DNA from: a virus
Direction: 5' to 3' (one strand)
Virus record (IMG/VR): IMGVR_UViG_3300018432_000013
Location: 48,927-112,926 of that record
Length of the DNA stretch: 64,000 bases
The notes beneath the pieces are model-generated. The model did no database searches and had not been told where the DNA came from. It saw only the letters and a program-made list of their open reading frames with translations. The stretch's first letter is position 1, and every line of letters begins with the position of its first letter. Positions 18,650 to 43,652 of the stretch are shown piece after piece. Position numbers and translations under genes: made by a program.

Positions 18650-18676
18650 TCAAGTTAGGCGCGGCAGTGCCGATAA
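18650..18676 (+). promoter_or_regulatory. Sigma28/FliA-type promoter, copy 1
   Basis: TCAA-N15-GCCGATAA. Confidence 0.75.
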
Positions 18677-18709
18677 CTAGGGCAGCAGCCCAGCAAAGGA
18701 ATTCCGAAC

Positions 18710-18904
18710 ATGAAGCGCCGCAATCGGATTGTTTCGTTCCTGCCCACCAGCAGCAGGCATTGTTTTTACCTCGCAGCTACCGGCAGACTCACTCAACTTC
18801 GCTTAGAGGCTCAACTGTTTACGTCGAAAGAGGCACACGAGGCGCAGGCCAGCAGCAAAGATAGATACGGGCCCGGGCAATGGGGCATCGAGGCCGTTGG
18901 CTGA
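18710..18904 (+). CDS. Cassette ORF, hypothetical
   Basis: Lies between promoter copies 1 and 2; AAGGA RBS. Confidence 0.55.
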   Translation: MKRRNRIVSFLPTSSRHCFYLAATGRLTQLRLEAQLFTSKEAHEAQASSKDRYGPGQWGIEAVG

Positions 18905-18931
18905 AATCGAACGGACCTACTCTTTTTCGAT

Positions 18932-18958
18932 TCAAGTTAAGCGCGGCAGTGCCGATAA
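18932..18958 (+). promoter_or_regulatory. Sigma28-type promoter, copy 2 (leaderless transcript)
   Basis: TCAA-N15-GCCGATAA, with ATG 7 nt after the -10 box. Confidence 0.75.
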
Positions 18959-18965
18959 CTAGGGC

Positions 18966-19181
18966 ATGAGCCGAATGGAACAGATTGATGCGCGATGGGA
19001 ACTCATGAGCGACGCGATTCGCGCGCTTCGCAGCTTGGGCGTCTCGCTCGAAACGCGCGAACGCCTCAGCAAGCTCCTCGATGCCGCTTGGACGCATGAG
19101 CGGACACTCGAGTGCGACCGGCTAGTCCGCGCCAGCACCGACAAAGGCGCGCGCGAGATGGTCGCCCGCTGGATCGGCTGA
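18966..19181 (+). CDS. Cassette ORF, hypothetical
   Basis: Fills the interval between promoter repeats. Confidence 0.6.
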   Translation: MSRMEQIDARWELMSDAIRALRSLGVSLETRERLSKLLDAAWTHERTLECDRLVRASTDKGAREMVARWIG

Positions 19182-19208
19182 AATCGAACGGGCCCGCTCT
19201 TTTTCGAT

Positions 19209-19235
19209 TCAAGTTAGGCGCGGCAGTGCCGATAA
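19209..19235 (+). promoter_or_regulatory. Sigma28-type promoter, copy 3
   Basis: TCAA-N15-GCCGATAA, followed by hairpin tgaggcgc..gcgcctca and acgggagcac. Confidence 0.75.
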
Positions 19236-19276
19236 TACTTATGAGGCGCACGCAAGCGCCTCACGGGAGCACGACA

Positions 19277-19699
19277 ATGGTTACCACGCTTGAAAAGATC
19301 GCGGCGCTTGAAACACTCGAGCAACTTCACGCCAGCGGTACGGCTCCCATCTCGCAAGATGCCTTGACGGATCTGATCAATGGCATCCGTGGCGAGCTGC
19401 ATGCCGCAGAAGAGCGCGCCGGATACGATGCCGCGCAATCTGAGCTTGCCGCGTTTCAAGCGGCTCACATCTACATGAGCCGCGGTCTCAAATATGCGGC
19501 CGATTGCGCTTGCTGCGGCGCACACATTGCGCGCGCGCTGAAATACTCGGGAGGCCTCCCGGCGTACTGGCGCAAGTCAGACAAAGCGATCGTTTGCGTC
19601 GATTGCTACAGCGCCAGCGAGTTGAGCCAGCGGGCCGTTGCGTACGGCTGGGCGAGCAAGCTTGACGGGAGCCGCATCTTGCGCGATTGCGAGAAATAA
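19277..19699 (+). CDS. Cassette ORF with zinc finger
   Basis: CACCG...CVDC; ATG after acgggagcac. Confidence 0.65.
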   Translation: MVTTLEKIAALETLEQLHASGTAPISQDALTDLINGIRGELHAAEERAGYDAAQSELAAFQAAHIYMSRGLKYAADCACCGAHIARALKYSGGLPAYWRKSDKAIVCVDCYSASELSQRAVAYGWASKLDGSRILRDCEK

Positions 19700-19721
19700 C
19701 CGGGCCCGCTCTTTTTTCGAT

Positions 19722-19748
19722 TCAAGTTAGCGCGGCAAGCGCCGATAA
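19722..19748 (+). promoter_or_regulatory. Sigma28-type promoter, copy 4
   Basis: TCAA-N15-GCCGATAA. Confidence 0.75.
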
Positions 19749-19791
19749 CAATGGTGAGGCGCAAGCAAGCGCCCGAACGGGAGCACGGGAA

Positions 19792-19962
19792 ATGACTTTT
19801 GACGAGTGCGACGGCGCCACGGTTACGCGGAAGCAAGCTCTCCGGGAGATCAAGCGCCACGCTTACAAGGCGCTTGACGAAATGATTGCCGAGTTCGACG
19901 CCGAGGTAGGCGTGTGTGAGCAATACGATGCCATGGCTGTCTTGATCTGGCTTGGCTACTGA
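19792..19962 (+). CDS. Cassette ORF, small acidic protein
   Basis: ATG after acgggagcac; ends VLIWLGY. Confidence 0.65.
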   Translation: MTFDECDGATVTRKQALREIKRHAYKALDEMIAEFDAEVGVCEQYDAMAVLIWLGY

Positions 19963-20062
19963 CATGCGCCGATTCGTTGCCGAAACCATCGCGGCAATCG
20001 GCTGGATCCGCTTTCACGTGGCGCACTTAGCCGCATACAAGCGCCAGCGCCGCAACAGAGAC

Positions 20063-20094
20063 TTGCGCGGATCGCGTTAGTCGTATCTAATAAT
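20063..20094 (+). promoter_or_regulatory. Sigma70-like promoter (related copies at 17569, 20979, 23036, 27596)
   Basis: TTGCGC-N17-TCTAAT; cgtatctaataatc shared with the 20979 copy. Confidence 0.55.
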
Positions 20095-20133
20095 CAAAGG
20101 TCGCAATCGAGCGACCGAACGGGAGCACGGAAC

Positions 20134-20391
20134 ATGCAGCATAAGCACGAAGTACGTTTGGTGTGCGGCAATCGCTACGATGCCGGTTTCACGGTTGTTT
20201 ATAGCAAGCGCGTCCGCTCTGAGGCATGCGCACTGCGGATTGCTCGCAAGCTTCGCGACCGCCATTGCGAGGAAACCCGAAGCGGCCGCAAGTGTCGCGA
20301 TTTTGTCGAAGTGGCGAATCGCGGTAGTGGTGAATGCCTGACGTTGGACGCAAACCTAGTCCCGAGTGTGGGCGAGCTCGGTTACTGGTGA
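20134..20391 (+). CDS. Cassette ORF, hypothetical
   Basis: ATG after acgggagcac. Confidence 0.6.
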   Translation: MQHKHEVRLVCGNRYDAGFTVVYSKRVRSEACALRIARKLRDRHCEETRSGRKCRDFVEVANRGSGECLTLDANLVPSVGELGYW

Positions 20392-20477
20392 TAGCGGCGC
20401 CTGCTGGCGCTGGTCTCGCGTAAGCGCGTTTGCCTCGCAAGCGCCTTTACTCGAGTCAAGCAACGGGAGCACGGAAC

Positions 20478-20954
20478 ATGGCCAAACAAACGAAAATCGA
20501 ATCTCACGAGCTTACCGCCCCTGCAAGTTGGGCAAGCTACTTGATCAATGGCGATGCCTCAGGATTCGATTACTACAATACGCCCAACGATGCCGCAGGC
20601 GATCGCGATCGGGAGGCTTGCGAAGCATGGATTGCGGCGCTTGCGGCCAATAACGCGCACGTAGTGAGCGCCAATGGTGAGCCGTTTTTCGCGCGCTATT
20701 GCGATGCCGATCGGGTAGTTTCCGGATTGCTTGCGGGCGACATGCTCACTTACCAGATCTTGCGGCATGCGCCGATCTACTACTCGCTGTCTATCCCGCA
20801 CTCGAGCACTCCCACGGAATGGCATCCAACCGAAGCAACGGGCCCGTTTGCCGTGCTTAGTCGCGGTGCATTTGCCACGGAAGCGGAAGCCCACGAATGG
20901 GCCCGCACTCATCTTGCGGGCCAGCCGTATAGCGTCCGGGAGTTTGCCGGCTAA
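20478..20954 (+). CDS. Cassette ORF, conserved phage early-type protein (WASYLINGDASG motif)
   Basis: ATG after acgggagcac; motif recalled from phage hypothetical proteins. Confidence 0.65.
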   Translation: MAKQTKIESHELTAPASWASYLINGDASGFDYYNTPNDAAGDRDREACEAWIAALAANNAHVVSANGEPFFARYCDADRVVSGLLAGDMLTYQILRHAPIYYSLSIPHSSTPTEWHPTEATGPFAVLSRGAFATEAEAHEWARTHLAGQPYSVREFAG

Positions 20955-21054
20955 TCTCTCGCGTATCGCGAAAGAGTGTTGACCGGGCCCGGCTATCTCG
21001 TATCTAATAATCTCATAGGCGCGCAAGTGAGCGAGCCGAACGGGAGCACGGGAA

Positions 21055-21252
21055 ATGGCCAGCCGCAAAATTGAGACTCTGATCGTGGAAACGCTAGCCG
21101 CACTTGAAATCGAACGCATGATCGCGGAAGCGATTGCGGAAGCGACGATCGGCGCCGCTATCGCGGAATGTCTAGCCCTCACCGATTTCGATTGCGAGCG
21201 CTCTTATGTGGGCCCGATCGTGGCTTGCTCAGATATCGCACTTGCCGCATAA
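21055..21252 (+). CDS. Cassette ORF, hypothetical
   Basis: ATG after acgggagcac. Confidence 0.55.
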   Translation: MASRKIETLIVETLAALEIERMIAEAIAEATIGAAIAECLALTDFDCERSYVGPIVACSDIALAA

Positions 21253-21261
21253 AGAAACCGC

Positions 21262-21288
21262 TAAAGCGATACGCGATAGTGCCGATAA
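21262..21288 (+). promoter_or_regulatory. Sigma28-type promoter, copy 5 (exact consensus)
   Basis: TAAA-N15-GCCGATAA. Confidence 0.8.
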
Positions 21289-21332
21289 CTAAGTGTGAGG
21301 CGCAAGCAAGCGCCCGAACGGGAGCACGCAAC

Positions 21333-21773
21333 ATGGCAACGAAGTACAAGCTAGTCTCTGGTGATGTGTCCGGCGCGCCCGCACTGTATGCGGCGCGAAT
21401 CGACGAAACCACGTTCGCGGTTTACGAGATCAATGAATGGGAGGATCTCGATTCCTCCGCGGTCGAGACTCACGGGAAATACAACGTTCAGGCGGGAATC
21501 GTCGATGTGCGCGGTTTCGACAGCCACACACAGATTCCCGGCTATTTTTCGGATAGCGTGCGGAGCGCGCTGCAATCGTGCGGCTGGGAAATCGACGGCA
21601 GCGGCAATATCTGGTGTCCTTACAGTGGTGACATTGTCGTCCAAGCTGGCTCGCCCGCATTCGAACTGTGTCTAGTCGAATGCCTGTGGCAGTACGGGGC
21701 AAAAGATGTTGCGGCCGATGTGTCCGGCGATAACTTGCGCAAGCTCGTGCGGGAAGCGCGCGCGGCAGTCTGA
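21333..21773 (+). CDS. Cassette ORF, acidic hypothetical
   Basis: ATG after acgggagcac. Confidence 0.65.
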   Translation: MATKYKLVSGDVSGAPALYAARIDETTFAVYEINEWEDLDSSAVETHGKYNVQAGIVDVRGFDSHTQIPGYFSDSVRSALQSCGWEIDGSGNIWCPYSGDIVVQAGSPAFELCLVECLWQYGAKDVAADVSGDNLRKLVREARAAV

Positions 21774-21797
21774 TACCGGCTAGTGGCGCTAGCGCCT

Positions 21798-21859
21798 TTA
21801 CTTGAATCGAACGGGCCCGCTCTTTTTCGATTCAAGTAAGCGCGGCAAGCGGACGATAA
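21798..21859 (+). promoter_or_regulatory. Sigma28-type promoter, copy 6, inside a 14-bp inverted repeat
   Basis: ttacttgaatcgaa...ttcgattcaagtaa; TCAA-N16-GACGATAA. Confidence 0.65.
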
Positions 21860-21902
21860 CAATGGTGAGGCGCAAGCAAGCGCCCGAACGGGAGCACGCA
21901 AC

Positions 21903-22367
21903 ATGGCAACGATTACGTGGAACATGGGCAGCAACGTGGAAGCGGTCTCAATCAAAACGGCTAGCGCGCTCGAAATCGCGATCGCAACCATCGTTGCAGA
22001 GCACGCCGATAGCTACCCGGACACGGGAGCCGTTGGATTCCTTAAGGATCTCGCGTACGGCGGTTGCGAGTCCGGCATGGTGGGCGAGCTTGTCTACTAC
22101 CGCGATACGTGCGCCTTTTATGAGACACATCGGCGCGAGATCGCCACGCTATTGAGCGAGATGCTTGCCGATGTAGGCGCAGACTCACCTCAAGGCCTGT
22201 TCGGTGAAAAGTGGGATCGCGAAGATCCGCTCGCATTGGAGGAAACGAATCAAAACTTGCTTGCGTGGTTCGCTTGCGAGGAAACGGCGCGCCGGTTGAC
22301 GCAACTTGCGCGTGAGAGCTTGCCGGATGCGAGCGCTGGCGCGCGCGCGCTTGAAACACTCCTCTAG
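21903..22367 (+). CDS. Cassette ORF, acidic conserved phage protein
   Basis: GCESGMVGELVYYRDTCAFY...NLLAWFACEETAR motif. Confidence 0.7.
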   Translation: MATITWNMGSNVEAVSIKTASALEIAIATIVAEHADSYPDTGAVGFLKDLAYGGCESGMVGELVYYRDTCAFYETHRREIATLLSEMLADVGADSPQGLFGEKWDREDPLALEETNQNLLAWFACEETARRLTQLARESLPDASAGARALETLL

Positions 22368-22390
22368 TCGCTACTTGCTCCCGTGGCGCA

Positions 22391-22440
22391 GCGAATCGGG
22401 CCCGCACTCTGCAAAACGAGTGCGGGCCCGATTCGCGTTT
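22391..22440 (+). terminator. 19-bp stem hairpin, possible terminator
   Basis: gcgaatcgggcccgcactc / gagtgcgggcccgattcgc, then gttt. Confidence 0.55.
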
Positions 22441-22454
22441 GCGGTTCGTTTGCG

Positions 22455-22930
22455 GCCGCTGGCGCTGGCTCCCGTGGCAACGCTGGCTCCCGTGCTCCCG
22501 TGGCGGCGCTGGCTTCCCGAGCGGCGCTGGCGCTGGCTTGCCGTGCTCCCGTGCTCCCGAGCGGCGCTGGCGCTGACCTTGCTCCCGTGGCGTGCTCCCG
22601 AGCGGCGCTGGCTTGCCGTGGCGCTGGCTTGCCGTGCTTCCCGAACGGCGCTGGCGTTCAAACTAGCCTCCCATGCGCCTCGGGAAGGCGCGCCAGCGCC
22701 AGCGGCTAGCCGGACATAGCCGCACGCTACGCTGGCGCCGCTTGCGAGCAGCTAGCGCGCTTCCCGTGCTTCCCGTGCTTCCCGTGGCGCTGGCTCCCGT
22801 GCTCCCATGCTCCCGTGCGGCGCTGGCTCCCGTGGCTGGCTCCCGTGGCTGGCTCCCGTGGCTGGCTCCCGTGGCGCTGGCGCTGGCACTGGCTTGCCGT
22901 GTTCCCGAGCGGCGCTGGCTTCCCGTGGCA
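22455..22930. repeat. Low-complexity repeat tract of gctcccgtg / ggcgctggc units
   Basis: Includes about four tandem copies of the 13-mer gctggctcccgtg (around 22822-22873). Confidence 0.8.
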
Positions 22931-22964
22931 TTGCCGCGACTTGCGAGAATCTTTCTTTTTCGAT

Positions 22965-22992
22965 TCAAGTAAACGCGGCAAGCGGCCGATAA
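22965..22992 (+). promoter_or_regulatory. Sigma28-type promoter, copy 7
   Basis: TCAA-N16-GCCGATAA. Confidence 0.65.
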
Positions 22993-23086
22993 CTTAGGTG
23001 AGGCCAGCGAGACGCTAGCCGGATGCGGAAAAAGATTGACGGCAAACGAGCAGACCGGCTAATCTGATACTAGAAAGAGCGAGCAG

Positions 23087-23269
23087 ATGAAAAAGCCAAC
23101 CAAGTATGTGTACGAATACATCGTACAGGGCCACTACGGTCAGGGATGGGAAGACCTGACCGCGCACGACACGCGCAAAGCGGCACGCGACGAGCGGCGC
23201 GTGTACGCGGCAAACGAGCCGGGCCCGCATCGGGTCATCTTCAGGCGCTCTCTCCGGCACACGGTTTGA
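23087..23269 (+). CDS. Cassette ORF, conserved small phage protein (VQGxYGxGWED motif)
   Basis: 60-aa ORF after a sigma70-like promoter. Confidence 0.65.
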   Translation: MKKPTKYVYEYIVQGHYGQGWEDLTAHDTRKAARDERRVYAANEPGPHRVIFRRSLRHTV

Positions 23270-23390
23270 GCACACGGGATCTCGCACACGGGATCTGCAC
23301 ACGGGTTGAGCCCTGCACACGAGCACACGGTCTCGCGCACACGGCTCAGAACGCGAGCACGCGGTCTGACAGCACACGGGAGCACGAATC

Positions 23391-23702
23391 ATGGCAATGA
23401 ACGCTGACATCGAACACGCGCGCACACGGCTTCTCGCGGTCCTCTCGGAGGGCTCAAAAGTCTACTGCGTACTTCGCACACGGTCTAAGTCGGGAATGTC
23501 GCGCACGGTGTCTTTCTTCACCTACCACGACGGGCACATGGTTTGGCTTGACGGCTACATGCACACGGTTTGCGGCTTCGCCCGCAAAGGCGATTCGCTG
23601 GTCATCAAGGGTGTTGGGCAGGACGCGGGGTTGCACGCGGTTTCGACGCTAGCCGCGAAGCTCTTCGGCCGCTCCGATGCGCTAGGCCACGAGTGGCTCT
23701 GA
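23391..23702 (+). CDS. Cassette ORF, conserved phage protein (VY..LR..S.SGMSR motif)
   Basis: ATG after acgggagcac. Confidence 0.7.
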   Translation: MAMNADIEHARTRLLAVLSEGSKVYCVLRTRSKSGMSRTVSFFTYHDGHMVWLDGYMHTVCGFARKGDSLVIKGVGQDAGLHAVSTLAAKLFGRSDALGHEWL

Positions 23703-23810
23703 ACTGAACATGCACGCGGGATCGCGCGCTGAGGTTCTCTCGCAATCCGCACACGGGATCGCGCTCGAATCTGAGCACACGGGCTCAACTTTCACGGGAG
23801 CACACGGCAC

Positions 23811-24074
23811 ATGGAAAAACATTACAGCTACGGTTCAGGCTCAACGGGCTGCATGTACGATTCAGGCCCGCACACGGCTTCGACTCTCGAAGACGCAATC
23901 GAAGGCGCGCTGTGTATCTTCGACGACCTTAGCGACGGCGCGCTCGCTTGTGCACGCGCGGATCTACTCGCACACGGGATCCACTACTTCCCTGAACTAG
24001 TACGCGGATACGCTGGCGCCGATTACGTCGAAGTGGTCGAGCAAGCCGGTCCCTGCCCTGAGTCCGACGACTGA
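23811..24074 (+). CDS. Cassette ORF, hypothetical
   Basis: Flanked by repeats. Confidence 0.7.
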   Translation: MEKHYSYGSGSTGCMYDSGPHTASTLEDAIEGALCIFDDLSDGALACARADLLAHGIHYFPELVRGYAGADYVEVVEQAGPCPESDD

Positions 24075-24185
24075 ACGCACACGGGATCGCACGCGAGGAT
24101 CGCGCGCTGAGATTCTTCCGCCAGCCTGCACACGGCTTGCGCTCGAATCTGAGCACACGGGCTCAACTTTCACGGGAGCACGAAC

Positions 24186-24377
24186 ATGGGAAACATGAAG
24201 CACTACACGCTACAGATTCGCAAGCCTGGCCGCGCATATCGCACGGTCGAGACTTCGACCGACGCCGCATCGATTCGCTGGGCTTTCGACCAGCACTTGG
24301 TGCCTTACGGTGAGAGCAGCGTGCGAATCTTGGACACGAACGGCGCAGTCATCATGCGCGCCACGCCAAAGCAGTAA
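24186..24377 (+). CDS. Cassette ORF, hypothetical
   Basis: Flanked by repeats. Confidence 0.65.
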   Translation: MGNMKHYTLQIRKPGRAYRTVETSTDAASIRWAFDQHLVPYGESSVRILDTNGAVIMRATPKQ

Positions 24378-24480
24378 CGCACACGGGATCGCACGCGGGA
24401 TCGCGCGCTGAGATTCTCTCGCAATCCGCACACGGGATCGCGCTCGAATCTGAGCACACGGGCTCTAAGGAGTAAGACAC

Positions 24481-24849
24481 ATGGCAAGGCAGCGCAAACT
24501 TGGTTCACGGCAGAAGGCAAACGCGGACGCTGCATTCCTGGCCGCATTCGAGCGCGCAATGGTACTACTCGGCGCCACGAAGCGCGCGGACTGGACGTGG
24601 ACAGCACATGAGTACGAAATCGAAACGCGTGCAGGTCGACTCGGCATCACGGGTTATCCCACGTCGCTCTCGGAGCCAGGCGGTTGGGTGGCGATGCGCT
24701 TCGACGACACCGAGCGCGCGAACACACTCGGACTCGGACAGCTCCTCAACAGGAATAGCGGCAAGTACAACGTAGATAGCCTGTACGGCTGCTCAGACGC
24801 GACCGAAGTTACCGACACGATCATGCGCCACGTACAGCGCGCGCTCTGA
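24481..24849 (+). CDS. Cassette ORF, hypothetical
   Basis: TAAGGAG RBS; flanked by repeats. Confidence 0.7.
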   Translation: MARQRKLGSRQKANADAAFLAAFERAMVLLGATKRADWTWTAHEYEIETRAGRLGITGYPTSLSEPGGWVAMRFDDTERANTLGLGQLLNRNSGKYNVDSLYGCSDATEVTDTIMRHVQRAL

Positions 24850-24956
24850 AAGATTGCGCACGCGGGATCGCGCGCTGAAATCTGCACACGGGCTTGCCTC
24901 GCACGCGGTCTGCAGATTTGAGCACACGGGCTCAACTTTCACGGGAGCACACGGTC

Positions 24957-25142
24957 ATGAAATACATCCTGAAGCAAGAGACGAACGACGGGATTTGGAC
25001 TAGCGAAGCGTTCGAGGCGCCGCACGAGCACGCGGTAAAGCAAGCGGTCGTCGCCGGCTACCTGAACGGCTCGGCACGCTGGGCAGAGACGCTCGACGGC
25101 ACGCGCATCTACGGCCTAGACAAAAAAGGAAAGCAGCTCTGA
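24957..25142 (+). CDS. Cassette ORF, hypothetical
   Basis: ATG after acgggagcac; flanked by repeats. Confidence 0.65.
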   Translation: MKYILKQETNDGIWTSEAFEAPHEHAVKQAVVAGYLNGSARWAETLDGTRIYGLDKKGKQL

Positions 25143-25255
25143 GTCGCACACGGGATCGCACGCGGGATCGCGCGCTGAGATTCTTTCGCCAGCCTTGCAC
25201 ACGGCTTGCGCTCGAATCTGAGCACACGGGCTCAACTTTCACGGGAGCACGGAAC

Positions 25256-25480
25256 ATGGAAAAAGACACAAGCCACCTAGGCGCGCTACAGGTTCGCCTC
25301 TCGCACGAACGAAACCGCCTGAACGCAGCGAAGACGGAAGGCGAGCGCGAACTTCGCCAAGTCTGGGTCGCTCAGATTGAAAAGGAAATCGCAGGCGAGA
25401 AGGCTTTCCTCGGGATGGTTGACGAATCTCCTACGACTGAGATGAGCGCTGACGACCTTCTCGCTGAACTTCTCGCCTGA
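25256..25480 (+). CDS. Cassette ORF, hypothetical coiled-coil protein
   Basis: Flanked by repeats. Confidence 0.7.
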   Translation: MEKDTSHLGALQVRLSHERNRLNAAKTEGERELRQVWVAQIEKEIAGEKAFLGMVDESPTTEMSADDLLAELLA

Positions 25481-25584
25481 ACCTGCACGCGGGATCGCGC
25501 GCTGAGATTCAACCGCCAGCCTGCACACGGCTTGCGCTCGAATCTGAGCACACGGGGCTCAACGCACACGGGAGTTTACGAAAC

Positions 25585-25800
25585 ATGGAAACGAAAAAGC
25601 AGCACACGGCGCCAGTTCTTAGGCTCGCTTCGGTTCGGCGGACGCGCACACTCTTCGTGCTGCGCTACGAAGAGGGACAGGGCGAGAGGCGCAAAGGTGA
25701 TTATCTCTACCTGCTCACGCGGGATCGCGCAGACAAGGTCATCGACCGCGCGCGCCGCCTTGGAATCCGCGTCTTTCGGATCCCCTACCGCATTCGCTGA
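25585..25800 (+). CDS. Cassette ORF, basic hypothetical
   Basis: Flanked by repeats. Confidence 0.6.
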   Translation: METKKQHTAPVLRLASVRRTRTLFVLRYEEGQGERRKGDYLYLLTRDRADKVIDRARRLGIRVFRIPYRIR

Positions 25801-26203
25801 CTCGCACACGGGATCTCGCACACGGTTTCGTGCATAGCAGACTGCGCTTCGGGTTTGGGGCCTCCATCGTGCTCCCACACTCGCCCAAACTACGAAGCGC
25901 TCTCTGCTGCACACGAACTCCGCACACGGCACGCACCTCGCACACACGGATTTCCAATTAAGTTCTACGCCACGTACGAATACGTCACACGCATGCACGC
26001 GGTAGTCACGCTAACGGACGAGCAAAAACAACTTTGCCGGTGCTTACCGCGTCGAGTACCGACCCGGCCACAACATCTACGAAACAAGCTTCAAACACGC
26101 CGAGCAAGCCGCAGCCCTCAAAGGCGGTCGGCTTGAGCGGTTCACCCGGGTCTGAAGCACACGGCACGCACCTCGCACACGGCATTCAAGGAGGAACACG
26201 GCA

Positions 26204-26461
26204 ATGGCACACGGATTCACACGCGACTGCCTCGTCTCAATCATCTACGACGTGCTCGACAAGCGCTGGGACGGCGACATGAGCCCATACAAAATCTCAG
26301 AAGTCGCAGCCGACGCACTCATCACAGCCGGCATCGAGGTCGCTACAGAACCGAGCGAAGAAGAGCGCGAGATTGCCGCATGCGAAGCGCGCGCCGAGCT
26401 CGATGAGTACCTGCTCGATCTTCACAACGATCAACTCGCTGACGAGGCGATGGGCAAATGA
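26204..26461 (+). CDS. Acidic hypothetical protein
   Basis: AAGGAGG RBS. Confidence 0.65.
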   Translation: MAHGFTRDCLVSIIYDVLDKRWDGDMSPYKISEVAADALITAGIEVATEPSEEEREIAACEARAELDEYLLDLHNDQLADEAMGK

Positions 26462-26940: not shown

Positions 26941-26971
26941 CGGTGCTACCGGCGGTGCTACCATGGCTGCT

Positions 26972-27193
26972 ATGGCTACCGTCCACAAGATCAGCATCTC
27001 GCTCGGCTCTGAAGACCTCGAATGGGCACGCAAAAAGGCCGAAGAAACTGCGAGTAGTGTCTCCGCAGTGATGAGCGGCGCACTGCGCCGGGAGCAACAA
27101 CACGAAGCGCGACTAAAGCTTCTCGAGTGGCTCGGTACGGACGACATCACCGAAGCAGACCGTGAAGCCATACGCCTAGAACTACGCTCGTGA
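26972..27193 (+). CDS. vapB: Ribbon-helix-helix antitoxin (VapB-like)
   Basis: KISISL...LEWARKKA...SVSAVM; overlaps the PIN gene by 4 bp; promoter TTGACG..TACCAT with direct repeats cggtgctacc. Confidence 0.75.
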   Translation: MATVHKISISLGSEDLEWARKKAEETASSVSAVMSGALRREQQHEARLKLLEWLGTDDITEADREAIRLELRS

Positions 27194-27567
27194 CACGCGG
27201 CATTACGTTCGACACGGGCGCACTGATCGCGCTTGAACGCCGCCAAAAACGCATGCGCAGCATCGTGACTGAAGCCACCCTTCAAGGTCTCACGATCACC
27301 ATTCCAGCTCCTGTGCTCACCGAGTGGTGGCGCAAACCAAGCGCAGCCCAGACGAATATTCTCCGCGCGTTCGAGGTGGAGCCGCTCACAGAACGCCTCG
27401 CAAAGCTCGCTGGTGAGGCCATCGAAAGCGTCGCACACGCAACACCCATCGACGCCATCGTGATGGCCAGCGCAGCATCACGAGGAGACATCGTGTTCAC
27501 GAGCGACTTCGACGATCTTGATCGCTTGCGCGCCTATTTTCCCAACGTCCGAGTCTTACGCACATGA
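27190..27567 (+). CDS. vapC: PIN-domain toxin
   Basis: FDTGALIALE...VLTEW...IDAIVMASA...TSDFDDL. Confidence 0.88.
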   Translation: MTRGITFDTGALIALERRQKRMRSIVTEATLQGLTITIPAPVLTEWWRKPSAAQTNILRAFEVEPLTERLAKLAGEAIESVAHATPIDAIVMASAASRGDIVFTSDFDDLDRLRAYFPNVRVLRT

Positions 27568-30045: not shown

Positions 30046-30431
30046 TGGAACCAAGACGCCGTGATACTACGATACCGGGCCAGCGCGACGCATCGGCACC
30101 GAAGACGCTTGCGCCTCTGAACGCACGCATGCTCGAGACTTCAGGGCTTTACGACTTCGATGTCGTGGATTTCGACACGGCCGTCACGGACGACGGCGCG
30201 ATCGAGTTCTGGGCGGACGTGTACGACCGGGTCCGCGAGCACACGGTCATCGTGACCGGCCGCTGGGACAGGGCACACGCGGCATTCGAGCGCGTGTGGC
30301 TCGACGAGGCCGAGCTCGGGCCCCAGCACCCGCTGCGCCGCACCATCGAGAGCGACAACTACATCGCGCGCGAGTGCGGCCGCGCCGCCGACCACGCCGC
30401 CCAGAGCGCACTCGAAGCGGCGCGTTGGTGA
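30046..30431 (+). CDS. Hypothetical protein
   Basis: ATG after an AT-rich promoter-like segment. Confidence 0.55.
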
Positions 30432-30742
30432 TGGGCATGCTCAGCCTACGCAAAGCCACCGAAGTCCGCTGGGGGCGCCGCCTTGAGCTCGGAACCGTCT
30501 ACCGGATCGTGGGCCAGTTCCACGTGCAGACCGAGGCGAAGGGCACCTTGCACGCGTGTCTCGTGCCCGTCGTCGCCGGCATGTACCAGGGCCAGCTCTC
30601 AGGCGACCCGACGCGCCACGTATTCACCGACACCGATGGCCTGCGCTACGTCGTCTCGAGCCCGGCGCACACGTGCGGACTGACCACCGCGCGCGTCTAC
30701 CGCTTCCCCAAAAAGCGCGTGTCCGCGGCGCGCGCGGCGTAG
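30431..30742 (+). CDS. Hypothetical protein
   Basis: Coupled to the previous ORF. Confidence 0.5.
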   Translation: MGMLSLRKATEVRWGRRLELGTVYRIVGQFHVQTEAKGTLHACLVPVVAGMYQGQLSGDPTRHVFTDTDGLRYVVSSPAHTCGLTTARVYRFPKKRVSAARAA

Positions 30743-31863: not shown

Positions 31864-32433
31864 TTGTTTACTCCTCTGGCTGGGCGCCGGACTTCAGCGC
31901 CTCACCAAAGAGAGCATAGCATGCCCGTATCGAATAAGGGCAAGTTCAAAGCACACGCGCCCGGAGGACTACCGCAGCGCTCAAAGGCCGGGCCTTCCCA
32001 GCCAAACACCGAGATGTCACGCGCCGCACGGCCTTCACCCCGCGCGTGTGGCTCGGTGTTCTGCCTCGCAACACTCAGGTCCGCTACCTTACCCATCGCC
32101 CTCCACACGCGGATTTGCCCAAACTTCGCTTGAAATCACTTATCCGATATCGCACCATGTACAGACGGATCGACAGGCTCAAACCCTCAGATTCGATCCG
32201 AAAGACAACTTGCGGATCACCTCGGCCTACTCATATCCACGAGACCATCGATTGGATCTTGCGTTGGTTCGACGCCGCTGTTGAAGTTCTCTGGCCATTC
32301 CGGGTCGCCGCGTCACCCAACGTTCGTCATTTCCTGCGTCTCATCATCTCTCCGTCGCCTCGTCTCTCCGTCTCCGCTGCCCTCCCGACCTTCGTCTTCA
32401 GGGGCTTTTCCGCAAATTCTAGGAGCCAACCCC

Positions 32434-33075
32434 ATGCGCGCTGACGTGCAGTCTCCAGCCGACGTGATCACCGATGAGATTGAGCGGATCATTGCGAAGC
32501 TAGCGCGGGACGTGGCAGAGCGTCTTCGCTCCTGCGACCGCTACCAAGCCAGACAAGACATCGCACAGGCCTTGCGCCTGGTCGCGCTGCAAGAAGCGCC
32601 CAAGTATCGCGGCGACAACGGCGCGACCCTAGCGACATTCCTCTACCGAGCGCTGCGTGTCAAAGCCTGGTCGGTCGGCTTCTGGCTCGACCTGCCCACG
32701 CATGTCGCAAAGAACAAGCGCACGGGCGTTTGGACCACGCGCACGGCTGCGCAGACCGACAAGCGCGCTACGGATGCACGCGCACCGAGAGACGACTTAC
32801 CGCCTGCCGAGGCCATGGACCTGATCCGCGACCCCGAAGACCTCGAGAGCCGCCTCGCAGACCGCGAGATCGCCGCGCGTGTCGAGGCCGTTCTGCACGA
32901 GGATCCACAGCACGAGGCGATTGCTCGTGTGCTGTTCGACGGCGAGAAGGCACCCGACGTGGCACGCGACACGGGGGTACCCATCGGCGACCTTCGCAAG
33001 TGCATCGTACGCACACGCGCACGGCTTCGACGCGACCCGACGCTGCAAGAGCTCTACTTCCGCTGCCTGGCGTGA
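32434..33075 (+). CDS. Phage-encoded sigma70-family (alternative) sigma factor
   Basis: Region 2-like QDIAQ...KYRGDNGATLATFLYRALR; region 4 HTH LFDGEKAPDVARDTGVP...RARLR; AGGAG RBS. Confidence 0.75.
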   Translation: MRADVQSPADVITDEIERIIAKLARDVAERLRSCDRYQARQDIAQALRLVALQEAPKYRGDNGATLATFLYRALRVKAWSVGFWLDLPTHVAKNKRTGVWTTRTAAQTDKRATDARAPRDDLPPAEAMDLIRDPEDLESRLADREIAARVEAVLHEDPQHEAIARVLFDGEKAPDVARDTGVPIGDLRKCIVRTRARLRRDPTLQELYFRCLA

Positions 33076-41015: not shown

Positions 41016-43652
41016 GTGCGAACACTCCCGCTGTTCGAGGCTCCGCTCCCCACACCCATCGCCACCGGCCCGCGGCTCATCCGCGAGGACAAGTGCCGAC
41101 GCTGTGAGCTCGGAGGCTTCGGCCACACGACCTGCATCCCGGCCGAAGGCGTTGAGGGGAAAGACTCGGCTCAAGGACTTGTGCTGGTGATTGGCGACTC
41201 ACCGACCTTGGAAGAAGACCGGCAAGGCCGCCCGATGATTGGCGTCAACGGGCGCTCGGTCCGGCGCGTGATCGAAAAGCACTGGGCCGGCGACTACGTG
41301 CTCGACTACGCCGTGCGCTGCCACGTCACGCGCCGCGACACAAAGGTCGTGCCGGAAGCGCAGAAGCAGTGCGCGCCCTATCTGCGCGAGACGTTCACGC
41401 AGACGATGCCCGATCGCGTACTCGTGATCGGGGGGCCCGCTGCGCGCGCTGTGCTTGGGCGTAGCGTCAAGCCATTCGACACGCGCAAGAACTACACCTG
41501 GGTCGAGCACATGAGCGGGAAGAAAGTCCCCGTGTTCGTGCTGATGGCAGTCGCAGGCTCCGTGCGAAACAGGCACCTGCTGCGCATGCTCGAAGAAGAC
41601 TTCGCGTGGGCACTCACCGTCGATCTGGCCACGCTCATGCCGCCGCTCGACCTCGATCCGAACGCCGTGTTTCACATCGTGGAAAACGAGGCCGATGCGC
41701 GCGTCGCATCCGACGCGCTGCGTGAGCACGACTGGGTAGCGTACGACTGCGAGACGGGAGGCCGGCAGTTCTCAAGCTTCTTTCGCAACGTGTGCGTGGG
41801 CGTAGCGCCCGCCGAGGGCGACACCGCGTACGTCTGGGGCCGTCAAGCCCTCGCTGACGCAGGCGCCCTCGGCGTGCTCCGAGAGCTTATGGAAGATCCC
41901 GCCGTCGGCAAGGTCGGGCACAACGAGAAATACGACAAGCTGTCGCTGCGCGCCGGCAGTGAGACCCTCGTCCAAGGCCACGTGCTCGATACGCAGCTCG
42001 CGCGTCACCTCGAGCTCCCGGGCTGCGATGCGCAGCTGAACACGGTGAGCGAGCTCGTCGGCATGGGCGGCTACTGGGAGAGCTTCTTGCCGCATCTGAA
42101 GCGCGCGCAGGAGCTCGTCAAAAAAGCGCGCACGAAGTCGAACAAGGGGCGCCAGCTCCGGCTGCTCGACGAGGACGAGGTGCTTGTCGCGGCCATCGAG
42201 CATCCCAAGGAAGACGTCGACGCGTACGCGTACGCGCTCGTGAAGTCGCCACTGCTCGAACGCTACAACGCGTGTGACTGCATCGCGACGGCGCGCGCGG
42301 CGCGCTCACGCTCGGGCTTTGAGCTCGTGACCAAGTTCCCGCCCGCGCGCAACATCTGGCGTAGCGTCGTCCGCCACACCACCAACGCGATCGAACAGAT
42401 CGAAGCGTGGGGCATCGCTGTGGACGACGGCGCGATGGAGCAGTTCAACCGCTACATCGCAGGCGAAGTAGAAAAGGTCGAGCGCCGACTCAGCCTCTAC
42501 AAGATCAACCCAGCGTCCCCAGACCAAGTTGCCGAGCTCCTCTTCGACAAACTCAAGCTGCGCAACCCGCAAAATCCGAAGTCGCGCTCGACCGACAAGA
42601 AGGCGCTCAAGGCGATGCTGGGCCAGCACCCGGTCATCGAAGACCTGCGCGAGCACAGACGGCTTGGCAAACTCGACAGCGCCTACGGCTCGCTCGGCGC
42701 GTTCGTGCGCGCGGACGGGCGCATTCATCCGAGCTTCAAGATTGACGGCGCTGAAACGGGACGCCTCTCAGTCGTCGACCCGGCCCTGCATACGCTTCCG
42801 CGCAGCAAGGACGCGGAAGGTCACGAGGAGGGCGGGCTCGTCAAGAGCATGTTCTGCGCGCGCTTAGGTTACAGACTCCTCGAGCTCGACCAGTCGCAGA
42901 TCGAGCTGCGCGCTGCCTGCATTCTTTCTGGCGACCCGGTGATGCGGCAAATCTTCACTTCAGGCGAAGACTTTCACCTCACCTCGGCCAAGCTCATCGC
43001 CCCGACGATGTGGAACATGGCACCGGAAGACGTGGGCGATGCGCAGCGCAGCGTCACGAAGAGCTTCGTGTTCGGGCTGCTCTACGGCATGACCGACTAC
43101 GGCATGGCCGCGCGCATGAACTGCTCACTCGACGAGGCTGCGCGACTGCGCGCGGCCATCATGGGCAAGTTCACGCGCCTCGCTGACTGGATCACGGAGT
43201 GCGTGCGGGAGGCGCGCAAAACAGGCCTCGTGGTGACTCCTTGGATGGGCGCGCCCGGACGCATCCGCGATCTGCACCAGATTGTGAACTTCGACGCGGG
43301 CGACTACAGCCCTGAGAACACCAAGGCGATGGCCGCCAAGCGCACGGCAGAAAACGGCGCCGTCAACACGCCCTGCCAGACACTCGCGAGTGACTTTGTG
43401 CTGCATGCGCTCTGCACGCGCATCGTGCCTTGGCTGCAGCAGGACCACTCAGTCGACGCCAAGGTCGTGATGACCGTGCACGACTCCATCCTCTTCGAGG
43501 TCCGAGAAGACCAGCTGCGGCTTGTCTCACGCACCGCGCGCCAGATGATGGCCGACTACGAGACCGGGGGGTTGCCGCTCGTGGTCGACGAGAAGGAGGG
43601 CGCGAACTGGGGTAACCTCGACAAGGTGCCAAAGCTTCAAGCAGCAGCCTAA
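41016..43652 (+). CDS. polA: Family A DNA polymerase with N-terminal family-4 uracil-DNA glycosylase-like domain
   Basis: CRRCEL...IGDSP..EEDRQGRPMIG...AVRC; Exo motifs YDCET, HNEKYD, YNACD; Pol motifs TGRLS, DQSQIELR, KSFVFGLLYG, VHDS. Confidence 0.93.
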   Translation: MRTLPLFEAPLPTPIATGPRLIREDKCRRCELGGFGHTTCIPAEGVEGKDSAQGLVLVIGDSPTLEEDRQGRPMIGVNGRSVRRVIEKHWAGDYVLDYAVRCHVTRRDTKVVPEAQKQCAPYLRETFTQTMPDRVLVIGGPAARAVLGRSVKPFDTRKNYTWVEHMSGKKVPVFVLMAVAGSVRNRHLLRMLEEDFAWALTVDLATLMPPLDLDPNAVFHIVENEADARVASDALREHDWVAYDCETGGRQFSSFFRNVCVGVAPAEGDTAYVWGRQALADAGALGVLRELMEDPAVGKVGHNEKYDKLSLRAGSETLVQGHVLDTQLARHLELPGCDAQLNTVSELVGMGGYWESFLPHLKRAQELVKKARTKSNKGRQLRLLDEDEVLVAAIEHPKEDVDAYAYALVKSPLLERYNACDCIATARAARSRSGFELVTKFPPARNIWRSVVRHTTNAIEQIEAWGIAVDDGAMEQFNRYIAGEVEKVERRLSLYKINPASPDQVAELLFDKLKLRNPQNPKSRSTDKKALKAMLGQHPVIEDLREHRRLGKLDSAYGSLGAFVRADGRIHPSFKIDGAETGRLSVVDPALHTLPRSKDAEGHEEGGLVKSMFCARLGYRLLELDQSQIELRAACILSGDPVMRQIFTSGEDFHLTSAKLIAPTMWNMAPEDVGDAQRSVTKSFVFGLLYGMTDYGMAARMNCSLDEAARLRAAIMGKFTRLADWITECVREARKTGLVVTPWMGAPGRIRDLHQIVNFDAGDYSPENTKAMAAKRTAENGAVNTPCQTLASDFVLHALCTRIVPWLQQDHSVDAKVVMTVHDSILFEVREDQLRLVSRTARQMMADYETGGLPLVVDEKEGANWGNLDKVPKLQAAA

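Follow-up and report, generated by a model that had tools for sequence, protein, structure and literature searches.

Folded spacers and a strand-polar octamer in a predicted early operon of an uncultured phage

Ten small co-oriented genes (A to J) lie on the + strand at 23.0-26.5 kb of a 64,000-nt stretch (hereafter the window, to which all coordinates refer) of an uncultured phage with a complete genome of 112,926 bp. Six of the gaps between these genes are filled by near-identical spacers that share one predicted fold, and the array carries the word GCAC(A/G)CGG on its sense strand. We give an even chance to the reading that each of these spacers is a standard intercistronic mRNA unit, in which a processing or stabilizing hairpin is followed by a 5′ hairpin and a ribosome-binding site. 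As predicted from the sequence, the 23.0-26.5 kb region would form one early transcription unit.

Layout of the array

The array and its head comprise the following features, with the strand in parentheses.

22965..22992 (+), sigma28 (FliA)-type promoter-like site at the array head: TCAAGTAA, 12 nt, GCCGATAA
23036..23065 (+), sigma70-like promoter-like site: TTGACG, 18 nt, TAATCT, read by eye
23087..23269 (+), gene A, 60 aa, first gene of the operon; open reading frame (ORF) with a weak match to phrog_34889 (E 2e-4)
23270..23390 (+), spacer IG0; seven exact octamers and one GCACGCGG variant
23391..23702 (+), gene B, 103 aa, four internal word copies; phrog_12365 (E 1.4e-8)
23703..23810 (+), structured spacer copy 1; alignment A1, model R1 122 bits
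23811..24074 (+), gene C, 87 aa; ORF list, word scan
24075..24185 (+), structured spacer copy 2; alignment A1, model R1 119 bits
24186..24377 (+), gene D, 63 aa; ORF list, word scan
24378..24480 (+), structured spacer copy 3; alignment A1, model R1 103 bits
24481..24849 (+), gene E, 122 aa; ORF
24850..24956 (+), structured spacer copy 4; alignment A1, model R1 109 bits
24957..25142 (+), gene F, 61 aa; sequence reading, word scan
25143..25255 (+), structured spacer copy 5; alignment A1, model R1 128 bits
25256..25480 (+), gene G, 74 aa; ORF list, word scan
25481..25584 (+), structured spacer copy 6; alignment A1, model R1 111 bits
25585..25800 (+), gene H, 71 aa, very basic; ORF list, word scan
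25801..25992 (+), spacer IG7; octamers, a ~30-bp hairpin (25823-25915) and a short octamer-pair leader, fold z -3.3
25993..26155 (+), gene I, ~54 aa; needs a +1 shift at the A5 run 26024-26028 to be read
26156..26203 (+), spacer IG8; two octamers, then AAGGAGG
26204..26461 (+), gene J, 85 aa; last octamer in codons 2-4

The first promoter-like site is a member of the repeat family D6/D12, which is found 5′ of the genes of the first array (18.6-22.4 kb), where each gene has one sigma28-like promoter; its sequence suggests that it may act as a promoter here as well. The second is a candidate promoter that falls under the threshold of our consensus scan. A hairpin with a T-run terminator (22398-22441) sits just 5′ of the second array, and the promoter repeat is likewise upstream. 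By consensus scan, no internal sigma70-type promoter or intrinsic terminator was found in 23.2-26.2 kb, and a reading of alignment A1 revealed no promoter inside the six spacers. An earlier sequence-only reading had described the spacers as lacking any recognizable promoter; the array does have promoter-like sites, at its head only.

The same reading held that the spacers flank unrelated small ORFs, and the nine ORFs that we compared (A-H and J) indeed show no mutual relationship. In the protein atlas, gene A matches unnamed viral clusters only; gene B has homologues at 74% and 51% identity, and gene E is without a homologue anywhere we searched. The genes 3′ of gene J are tightly packed and do not carry the word.

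Sequence and predicted fold of the spacers

The six structured spacers (103-113 nt, 80% mean column identity in alignment A1) each correspond to exactly one stop-to-ATG gap, in agreement with the initial description of near-identical spacers. Three further spacers (23270-23390, 25801-25992 and 26156-26203) are of other types and consist mostly of octamer copies; in IG0, several of these are spaced 13-14 nt apart, and its 3′ end is the standard ribosome-binding box. Each structured spacer starts, right after the stop codon, with a small GAUC-palindrome hairpin that contains one or two copies of the word. The second element is a predicted composite hairpin of ~21 base-pair steps, in which an outer stem (3+6 bp, conserved G.G mismatch) leads through a 3x3 internal loop to an inner stem (3+4 bp, conserved 1x1 mismatch), capped by a 7-8-nt loop that displays GCACAC. 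Both pairings first picked out by eye are present: the small hairpin UGAGC-ACACGG-GCUCA, which shares its 5′ arm with the outer stem of the composite hairpin and has a stem of only 4 bp in copy 3, and the long pairing GCUGAGAUUC/GAAUCUGAGC, which carries the conserved G.G mismatch. The spacer ends in the standard early ribosome-binding box of the phage, CACGGGAGCAC, located 3-7 nt 5′ of the AUG; copy 3 has a canonical AAGGAG site in place of this usual 3′ end.

The same fold is predicted in all six copies. Changes on both sides occur in 7 of 24 pairs, counted over six copies in one genome and stemming mostly from copy 4, a variant whose outer stem is longer. Paired cells amount to 97.9%, compared to 14-46% with the partners slid, and none of 500 shuffles matched the observed values. 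Three G.U cells become A.C mismatches if read on the opposite strand, and model R1 scores 103-128 bits on the + strand versus at most 29 bits on the - strand. Compensatory changes and G.U pairs in the alignment speak for a fold of the single strand; an ssDNA hairpin would give identical covariation and G.T pairs. Taken singly, the copies have unremarkable folding energies (z -0.9 to -1.9), and Rfam gave no match to known RNA families at E <= 1 across 18-27 kb.

We propose that transcription of the ten-gene unit would start at the sigma28-like and sigma70-like sites (22965-23065) and that the six ~110-nt repeats would act in the + strand mRNA. The composite hairpin may serve as a processing or stability signal, for example as a substrate of host RNase III. 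After cutting, the upstream cistron would retain a protective 3′ hairpin, and the downstream cistron would gain a 5′ hairpin and a ribosome-binding site, as in the first array, where the promoter-driven genes are laid out in this way. No gene for an RNA-binding protein was found in the phage genome and none for RNase III either, so that cleavage by RNase III would need a host enzyme. Of the functions first suggested for the repeats, RNA processing or antitermination fits best with a unit that is strand-specific, ends in a ribosome-binding site, has a compensated fold and lies behind head-only promoters; the cleavage itself we infer, as we do the binding factor and the single transcript. We do not claim a ribosome-binding-site switch: cutting the outer stem in silico raised Shine-Dalgarno (SD) accessibility in 5/6 copies, only modestly.

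Phage T7 early genes carry a set of RNase III signals (R0.3, R0.5, R1, R1.1 and R1.3). These are likewise irregular hairpins of about two turns with an internal loop, placed between the cistrons of a head-promoted polycistronic early RNA, and here too the 3′ hairpin would stay on the upstream message. An intercistronic irregular hairpin of ~20 bp with an internal loop is predicted in 6/6 of the phage spacers, on a single transcript that is itself conjectural. Unlike the phage spacers, the T7 sites are not near-identical copies and come with no operon-wide word; their sequences are unrelated to those of the spacers, in which cleavage is putative.

A polar word across the operon

An mRNA function of the spacers does not by itself explain the large number of word copies. 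In the window, the octamer GCACACGG occurs 42 times. The + strand of 23257-26214 accounts for 37 copies, the - strand there for none and the rest of the window for 5; dinucleotide shuffles gave 4.4 +/- 1.9 copies (maximum 10) versus the 37 observed. The octamers of the array are thus strictly on the + strand, as had been noted, and the count over all 112,926 bp is 38 (+) and 4 (-), with 37 of the 38 + strand copies within 3 kb. For the looser word CAC(A/G)CGG, the domain contains 49 copies on the + strand and 0 on the - strand. The domain extends from the last codons of gene A (23257) to the first codons of gene J (26214), and the first array, with its one promoter per gene, contains zero copies.

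Eleven word copies lie inside ORFs, in all three frames. Synonymous-codon shuffles yielded 3.7 +/- 1.5 copies, and 11 was reached in 0/2000, which suggests, as a new finding here, that the word is under selection within ORFs too. In the structured spacers, the loop word and the word of the 3′ hairpin lie 25-26 nt apart, start to start, in 6/6 copies, with the latter ~30 nt 5′ of the AUG. The central ACA has a predicted unpaired probability of 0.72-0.83 versus a mean of 0.44; we do not read this as loop display of the word, as A-rich positions in a U-poor RNA would give the same signal. A search for the three-octamer pattern returned 51 viral loci and at least 120 genome loci, and those examined were simple tandem repeats or unrelated tracts.

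The word cluster recurs in a distant relative (G001, PolA 44% identical), where GCAC(A/G)CG occurs 23 times in sense and once in antisense within 4.6 kb at the syntenic early position, against a Markov expectation of 5.3 (maximum 13). The covariance-model search of other phages that had been suggested recovered one spacer of this relative (19.5 bits, E 0.0015 in 92 kb) and no other copy in the phage's own genome or in ~860 kb of relatives. The look-alike spacer (fold z -3.9) has no evident promoter and shares the layout of a hairpin plus a composite hairpin, with CACAC in the loops. Both the cluster and this spacer are new findings here. The cluster is absent from eight other family members (G002-G005, G011-G015), and none of the cassette genes is present in G001, G002, G004 or G005, with synteny resuming only from 30.3 kb. 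Close relatives were not found among INPHARED phages, in IMG/VR (by repeat pattern or protein) or in JGI metagenomes; a PolA 65% identical to that of the phage is encoded on a 117,050-bp JGI contig.

In our model, GCAC(A/G)CGG would mark the sense strand of the entire operon, ORFs included, and would most likely be the site of a putative factor that reads nascent RNA or the non-template strand and serves processivity, stability or translational control. We advance tentatively, at well below an even chance, the stronger claim that the word is a new kind of operon-wide polar mark, read by a dedicated factor common to the phage and G001. Such a factor would control the processivity, silencing or turnover of a promoterless host-takeover operon, with the folded spacers as its high-affinity display sites. 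An ECF-like sigma factor (~32.4-33.1 kb) and a 148-aa protein (30296-30742) are conserved in just these two phages and are candidates for the word factor.

The word may instead be read in DNA, and polar protein loading, one of the functions first suggested, may apply to the octamer. Stoperators are 13-bp sites, present in ~20-35 copies per genome over both arms, that are bound as double-stranded DNA by an immunity repressor. Those of Cluster A mycobacteriophages (the L5 gp71 sites) resemble the word in being short and asymmetric and in always following the direction of transcription (PMC4351075); they too are numerous, and many lie where one gene meets the next. We consider it unlikely that GCAC(A/G)CGG(GATC) is such a polar, asymmetric DNA site of 8-12 bp, to which a putative repressor or roadblock protein of the phage binds and so silences the promoterless early operon or gates it, with the hairpins incidental or otherwise used. 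All 49 copies do point with transcription, many of them right after stop codons; the word is kept in G001 and the flanking sequence is not; and the phage genome carries a VapC-like PIN gene beside a likely antitoxin, a feature of a plasmid-prophage lifestyle, which would need silencing. However, the word is packed at 16 copies per kb, 49 within 3 kb, versus about one stoperator per 1-2 kb genome-wide, its 13-14-bp spacing is out of helical phase, and the compensatory changes and G.U pairs favor a single-stranded fold. No repressor for the word was identified.

Cassette systems, promoters and Chi

The spacers also invite comparison with mobile cassettes. Integron arrays (IntI, attI, attC; chromosomal ones have near-identical ~120-bp attC sites, for example the Vibrio VCRs) likewise consist of co-oriented promoterless small genes, often without an assigned function, behind a head promoter and separated by near-identical imperfect-palindrome repeats of ~110 bp; in silico, the phage array similarly has promoterless co-oriented cassettes with promoter-like sites at its head only. 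The sequence-only reading had called the array integron-like without an integrase. The second half of this description stands: the complete genome (112,926 bp) gave no match to the tyrosine recombinase family PF00589 (control genomes match 14/14), and no serine recombinase was found there either. Membership does not hold up, as the repeat, which starts GCAC(A/G)CGGGATC and ends CACGGGAGCAC-N-ATG, includes the next gene's ribosome-binding site and lacks the RYYYAAC...GTTRRRY ends; a GCTCAAC lies near its 3′ end, with no GTTRRRY partner inside the unit. Without either recombinase and without attC core sites, the integron reading fails.

A closer parallel is offered by the promoter-early stem-loop (PeSL) cassettes of T4-type phages, which are likewise conserved composite units of ~100 bp that contain a stem-loop, terminate in a start codon with its Shine-Dalgarno sequence and recur between small orphan genes (PMC2839356; PMC4122927). 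They too lie in a hyperplastic early region that has no dedicated recombinase and in which homology is able to drive modular shuffling. The phage spacers share the stem-loop, SD sequence and start codon, the length of ~100 bp and the orphan genes on either side. Each PeSL unit carries a strong sigma70-like promoter and a stem-loop that terminates transcription, whereas the six phage spacers have neither promoter nor U-run, lie within one operon and bear a polar 8-mer that extends through the ORFs. The first array of the phage is more PeSL-like than the second, whose spacers resemble PeSL units stripped of their promoter.

We hold it rather improbable that the repeats are mainly recombination substrates, PeSL- or integron-like junctions for swapping small genes, with expression signals secondary. 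Some ~100 nt of near-identical sequence does bracket unrelated genes, including gene E with its lack of homologues, and the cassette genes are missing from the four relatives named above. The six copies show every one of the four combinations of 5′ type (first octamer present or absent) with inner-hairpin type (a or b), which indicates exchange between copies, and T4-type PeSLs shuffle genes without a dedicated recombinase (PMC2839356). Against this, the site-specific recombinase and attC core sites are both absent, and homology alone leaves the conserved mismatches, compensatory changes, strand polarity and in-ORF words unexplained. Given the mosaic subtypes, gene shuffling by homologous recombination between repeats is plausible as a side effect: near-identical units supply the homology, and cassette gain and loss are a likely by-product of the spacers rather than their purpose.

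The 3′ end of the spacer has a counterpart in the start-associated sequences (SAS) of Cluster K mycobacteriophages, a conserved asymmetric box with a ribosome-binding site that lies a few bases 5′ of the start codons of a subset of genes (PMC4351075). In both phage arrays, CACGGGAGCAC is an SAS-like box 5′ of start codons. SAS consist of the start-codon box alone; the phage spacers add a folded unit of ~110 nt and in-gene words.

Conserved one-strand motifs 5′ of each gene might also be promoters of a polymerase redirected by the phage, for instance through the ECF-like sigma factor, with the word or a word pair 25-26 nt apart as recognition element; such motifs are typical of phage promoters. 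The constant spacing of the loop and 3′ words, the latter ~30 nt from the AUG, would suit this idea, as would the sigma-like gene common to the phage (G000) and G001, both with the word domain, and without a match in G002, G004 and G005. We nevertheless regard it as very improbable. The 4-5 copies per spacer, the 13-14-nt tandem runs and the in-ORF copies are not promoter-like, the word is unlike ECF -35/-10 elements, the spacing differs in G001 (19 and 29 nt), and the sigma match is weak (17.5 bits, under the Pfam cut-off). Nor do two other promoter types apply: N4-style hairpin promoters call for a giant virion RNA polymerase, which the genome, with a largest ORF of 977 aa, lacks; the sigma54-like TGCAC-N5-TTGC occurs in inner-hairpin type b only, without the GG.

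Least probable of all, in our estimate, is that a host RecBCD/AddAB-type nuclease responds to the word, or to its complement, as a polar signal of the Chi kind, with the cluster as a barrier that protects injected or replicating linear DNA. A strictly polar 7-8-mer that is densest where coding imposes no constraint, thinner and carried by codon choice within ORFs, and kept in two very divergent phages whose surrounding sequence is not, is what a host-dictated word would look like. Yet we know of no precedent for ~50 Chi-like copies within 3 kb mid-map, which counts against this account; five arbitrary proteobacterial genomes, which may not represent the host, carry the word no more often than background, and its placement in hairpin loops and fusion to the ribosome-binding box would go unexplained. 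The suggestion that the phage Dam could act on the repeats is unsupported, as GATC is as dense here (19 sites in 3.3 kb) as in the genome on average (5.9 per kb). We also discarded the idea that the CRISPR array of the phage targets the phage itself: 0/21 delimited inter-repeat spacers match the second array beyond random 9-14-mers.

Phage early regions show the fastest turnover of host-takeover and anti-defense genes, and the way in which these are expressed as exchangeable modules is, to our knowledge, poorly understood. One phage here has two adjacent solutions: in the first array every gene has its own promoter, and the second is a promoterless operon with standard folded spacers. As they stand side by side, comparing them directly would test the role of the spacer. 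Compact and natural, the spacer could also be placed between cistrons when operons are built for GC-rich bacteria. The 8-mer saturates the promoterless operon only, is maintained within genes through the choice of codons and is found again at that map position in a very distant relative, a pattern that would be the signature of a sequence-specific reader that, as far as we know, nobody has described. If found, such a reader would represent a new control principle.

The array as a probable transcription unit

No cultured phage is closely related to this virus (PolA identity 29% at best), whose 112,926-bp record IMG/VR classes as 100% complete with terminal repeats; the window is the second half of that record. 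Upstream of the array (small genes A-J, 23.0-26.5 kb) lies a first array at 18.6-22.4 kb, where every one of the small genes, all on the plus strand, comes with a promoter repeat of sigma28 type, a short hairpin and a ribosome-binding box of fixed form. The promoter repeat (18650-22992) fits the sigma28 (FliA) consensus TCAAGTTA-N11-GCCGATAA, and each copy precedes one small gene; such promoters ahead of phage early genes are unusual.

Features of the array and its surroundings (window positions)
22398-22441: terminator (hairpin and T-run), end of the first array
22965-22992: sigma28-like promoter repeat copy, shortly upstream of gene A
23036-23065: TTGACG-N18-TAATCT site, shortly upstream of gene A
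23270-23390: spacer IG0, mainly octamer copies, several 13-14 nt apart
41016-43652 and 45456-47471: genes for DNA polymerase A (UDG fusion) and RecA (intein)

A sequence-only reading had reported no recognisable promoter. This holds inside 23.2-26.2 kb, where a consensus scan returned neither promoter nor terminator, but not at the head, with its promoter-like sites at 22965-22992 and 23036-23065. Given promoter sites only at the head, a terminator upstream and none of either inside, we infer on good grounds that a single early transcript covers the array. A rival explanation casts the repeats as promoters for the phage's own ECF-like sigma factor.

Between the arrays, the non-coding tract 22374-22934 contains only 7% A and repeats GCTCCCGTG, in exact and variant form, many times on the plus strand; these copies are complementary to the early ribosome-binding box. 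Relative to shuffled tracts, its RNA is predicted to show stronger pairing to the leaders of B, C, D, F, G and H (z -2.2 to -4.6), with no such excess for the A, E, I, J, K and L leaders. The tract's minus strand has the same CACGG core in the orientation opposite to the array. In composition, that minus strand is resembled by CACGGCGA-like short repeats that form a nearly T-free, ORF-free stretch of >3 kb (L020:5900-9300, minus strand; also L024 and L002) in two related GC-rich viral contigs (IMG/VR 3300014720_003904, 3300013132_000244).

Small genes in tight succession and one with a PIN domain lie downstream of the array, ahead of a replication module that comprises DnaB-like helicase, Toprim primase, a PolA-UDG fusion and intein-containing RecA. 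The uracil-DNA-glycosylase domain is N-terminal on the polymerase, a fusion common to the whole phage family, and the RecA gene is split by a LAGLIDADG intein. The VapC-like PIN gene (27190-27567, E 1.3e-8; within 26960-27567) overlaps the 3′ end of an ORF that resembles a ribbon-helix-helix antitoxin in its C-terminal part (...VHKISISL...); by sequence, the phage would carry a toxin-antitoxin pair here. The ECF-like sigma factor (32431-33075) matches region 2 weakly (17.5 bits) and carries, at its C-terminus, a helix-turn-helix of region 4 type; it is kept at 27% identity in the relative G001, with no match in relatives G002, G004 and G005.

Spacers, genes and a shared fold

Near-identical spacers had been described as running from stop codon to ATG, and six indeed do so, each spanning precisely one such gap (103-113 nt; mean column identity 80%). 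Spacer IG7 combines octamers with a ~30-bp hairpin (z -3.3), and IG8, a short leader, has two octamers. The IG7 hairpin (25823-25915), whose loop holds the anti-Shine-Dalgarno-like sequences CCUCC and GUGCUCCC, could be a small RNA or a further processing site.

The nine ORFs compared (A-H, J) include no paralogues and have no Pfam match; two of the nine have weak PHROG matches. Homologues of gene B reach 74% and 51% identity, and none was found for gene E. Gene I (25993-26155) has an open frame throughout only if a +1 shift is assumed at the A5 run 26024-26028, which reflects either a homopolymer assembly error or programmed frameshifting; joined, the two parts encode a plausible ~54-aa protein.

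All six repeats adopt the same structure by RNAalifold and single-sequence folding. In a small hairpin two GAUC palindromes pair, with a copy of the octamer word in the loop. A composite hairpin follows 3′, its outer stem (GCU-G-AGAUUC / GAAUCU-G-AGC) being the longer pairing of the sequence-only reading, predicted in every copy, with a G.G mismatch retained even in divergent copy 4. Beyond a 3x3 internal loop comes the inner stem, whose 1x1 mismatch is conserved and which is capped by a 7-8-nt loop displaying GCACAC; GCUC then pairs with GGAG of the ribosome-binding site. The small hairpin of the sequence-only reading is also recovered, as an alternative pairing of the outer stem's 3′ arm with GCUCA.

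The structure is conserved, with two-sided, compensatory changes in 7 of 24 pairs, covariation drawn from one genome. Paired cells amount to 97.9%, compared to 14-46% after sliding the partners, and none of 500 shuffles attained the observed values. Three G.U cells become A.C on the opposite strand, and the covariance model of the six spacers scores 103-128 bits on the plus strand and <=29 on the minus. The folding energy of any one copy does not stand out (z -0.9 to -1.9). Single-stranded plus-strand DNA would fit the fold data equally well.

A polar word and a possible processing unit

The octamers had been called strictly plus-strand, and the looser word CAC(A/G)CGG bears this out (49 on plus, 0 on minus in the domain). 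Of 42 GCACACGG matches in the window, 37 fall on the plus strand at 23257-26214 (4.4 +/- 1.9 expected from shuffles), and genome-wide this word is the most clustered 8-mer, level with the phage's CRISPR repeat. ORFs A-H and J contain 11 copies in all three frames and none antisense; synonymous-codon shuffles among array genes gave 3.7 +/- 1.5 and never reached 11 in 2000 trials. The word is under selection for its own sake. The adjacent, co-oriented and equally early first array has no copies, which ties the word to the promoterless operon rather than to early genes generally. Most simply, it is a site for a factor reading the sense strand, which might act in stabilisation, translational control or timed decay, or in antitermination over the nine hairpin-rich gaps that are not translated; rivals are a stoperator-like DNA roadblock and a Chi-like barrier.

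The six repeats are most likely a standard intercistronic mRNA unit. Phage T7 RNase III signals are irregular hairpins between early cistrons, and the composite hairpin is like them in size and irregular shape. A cut there would leave the upstream message a 3′ hairpin and give the downstream one a 5′ hairpin and ribosome-binding box, matching how primary transcripts of the first array are laid out.

Recombination as the primary function of the repeats is a rival to the mRNA unit. Among the copies, each of two 5′ types is found with each of two inner-hairpin types, as expected from exchange or conversion between them, so recombination between repeats is likely, judging by sequence. PeSLs show that homology of this kind can suffice for gene shuffling, with no enzyme dedicated to it (PMC2839356). 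The array had also been called integron-like, a likeness limited to promoterless, co-oriented cassettes after a single promoter; an integron is ruled against by the absence of tyrosine and serine recombinases from the complete genome and of attC core sites from the repeat.

The element in the phage family

PolA homologues define a family of uncultured phages of roughly 85-140 kb. The nearest member examined, G001 (116 kb, PolA 44%), matches the gene order from 30.3 kb on and has none of the array's cassette genes. Its early region, across the circular junction (C1, about 113,550-116,000 and about 20-2,320), holds an 18-nt unit in long tandem runs that seem to be coding, at six residues per unit.

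At the syntenic early position, 4.6 kb of G001 contain 23 sense and 1 antisense GCAC(A/G)CG (Markov expectation 5.3; maximum 13 in 2000). The proposed covariance-model check on other phages, run filter-free over 92 kb, matched one G001 intercistronic spacer without evident promoter end to end (19.5 bits, E 0.0015); this folds (z -3.9) into a hairpin and a long composite hairpin with CACAC-type loops. Eight more distant relatives showed no comparable word cluster. Expansion in the phage under study (G000) has reached six element copies and about 50 words. The G001 word cluster and matching spacer indicate that the element and the polar word are older than the G000/G001 split.
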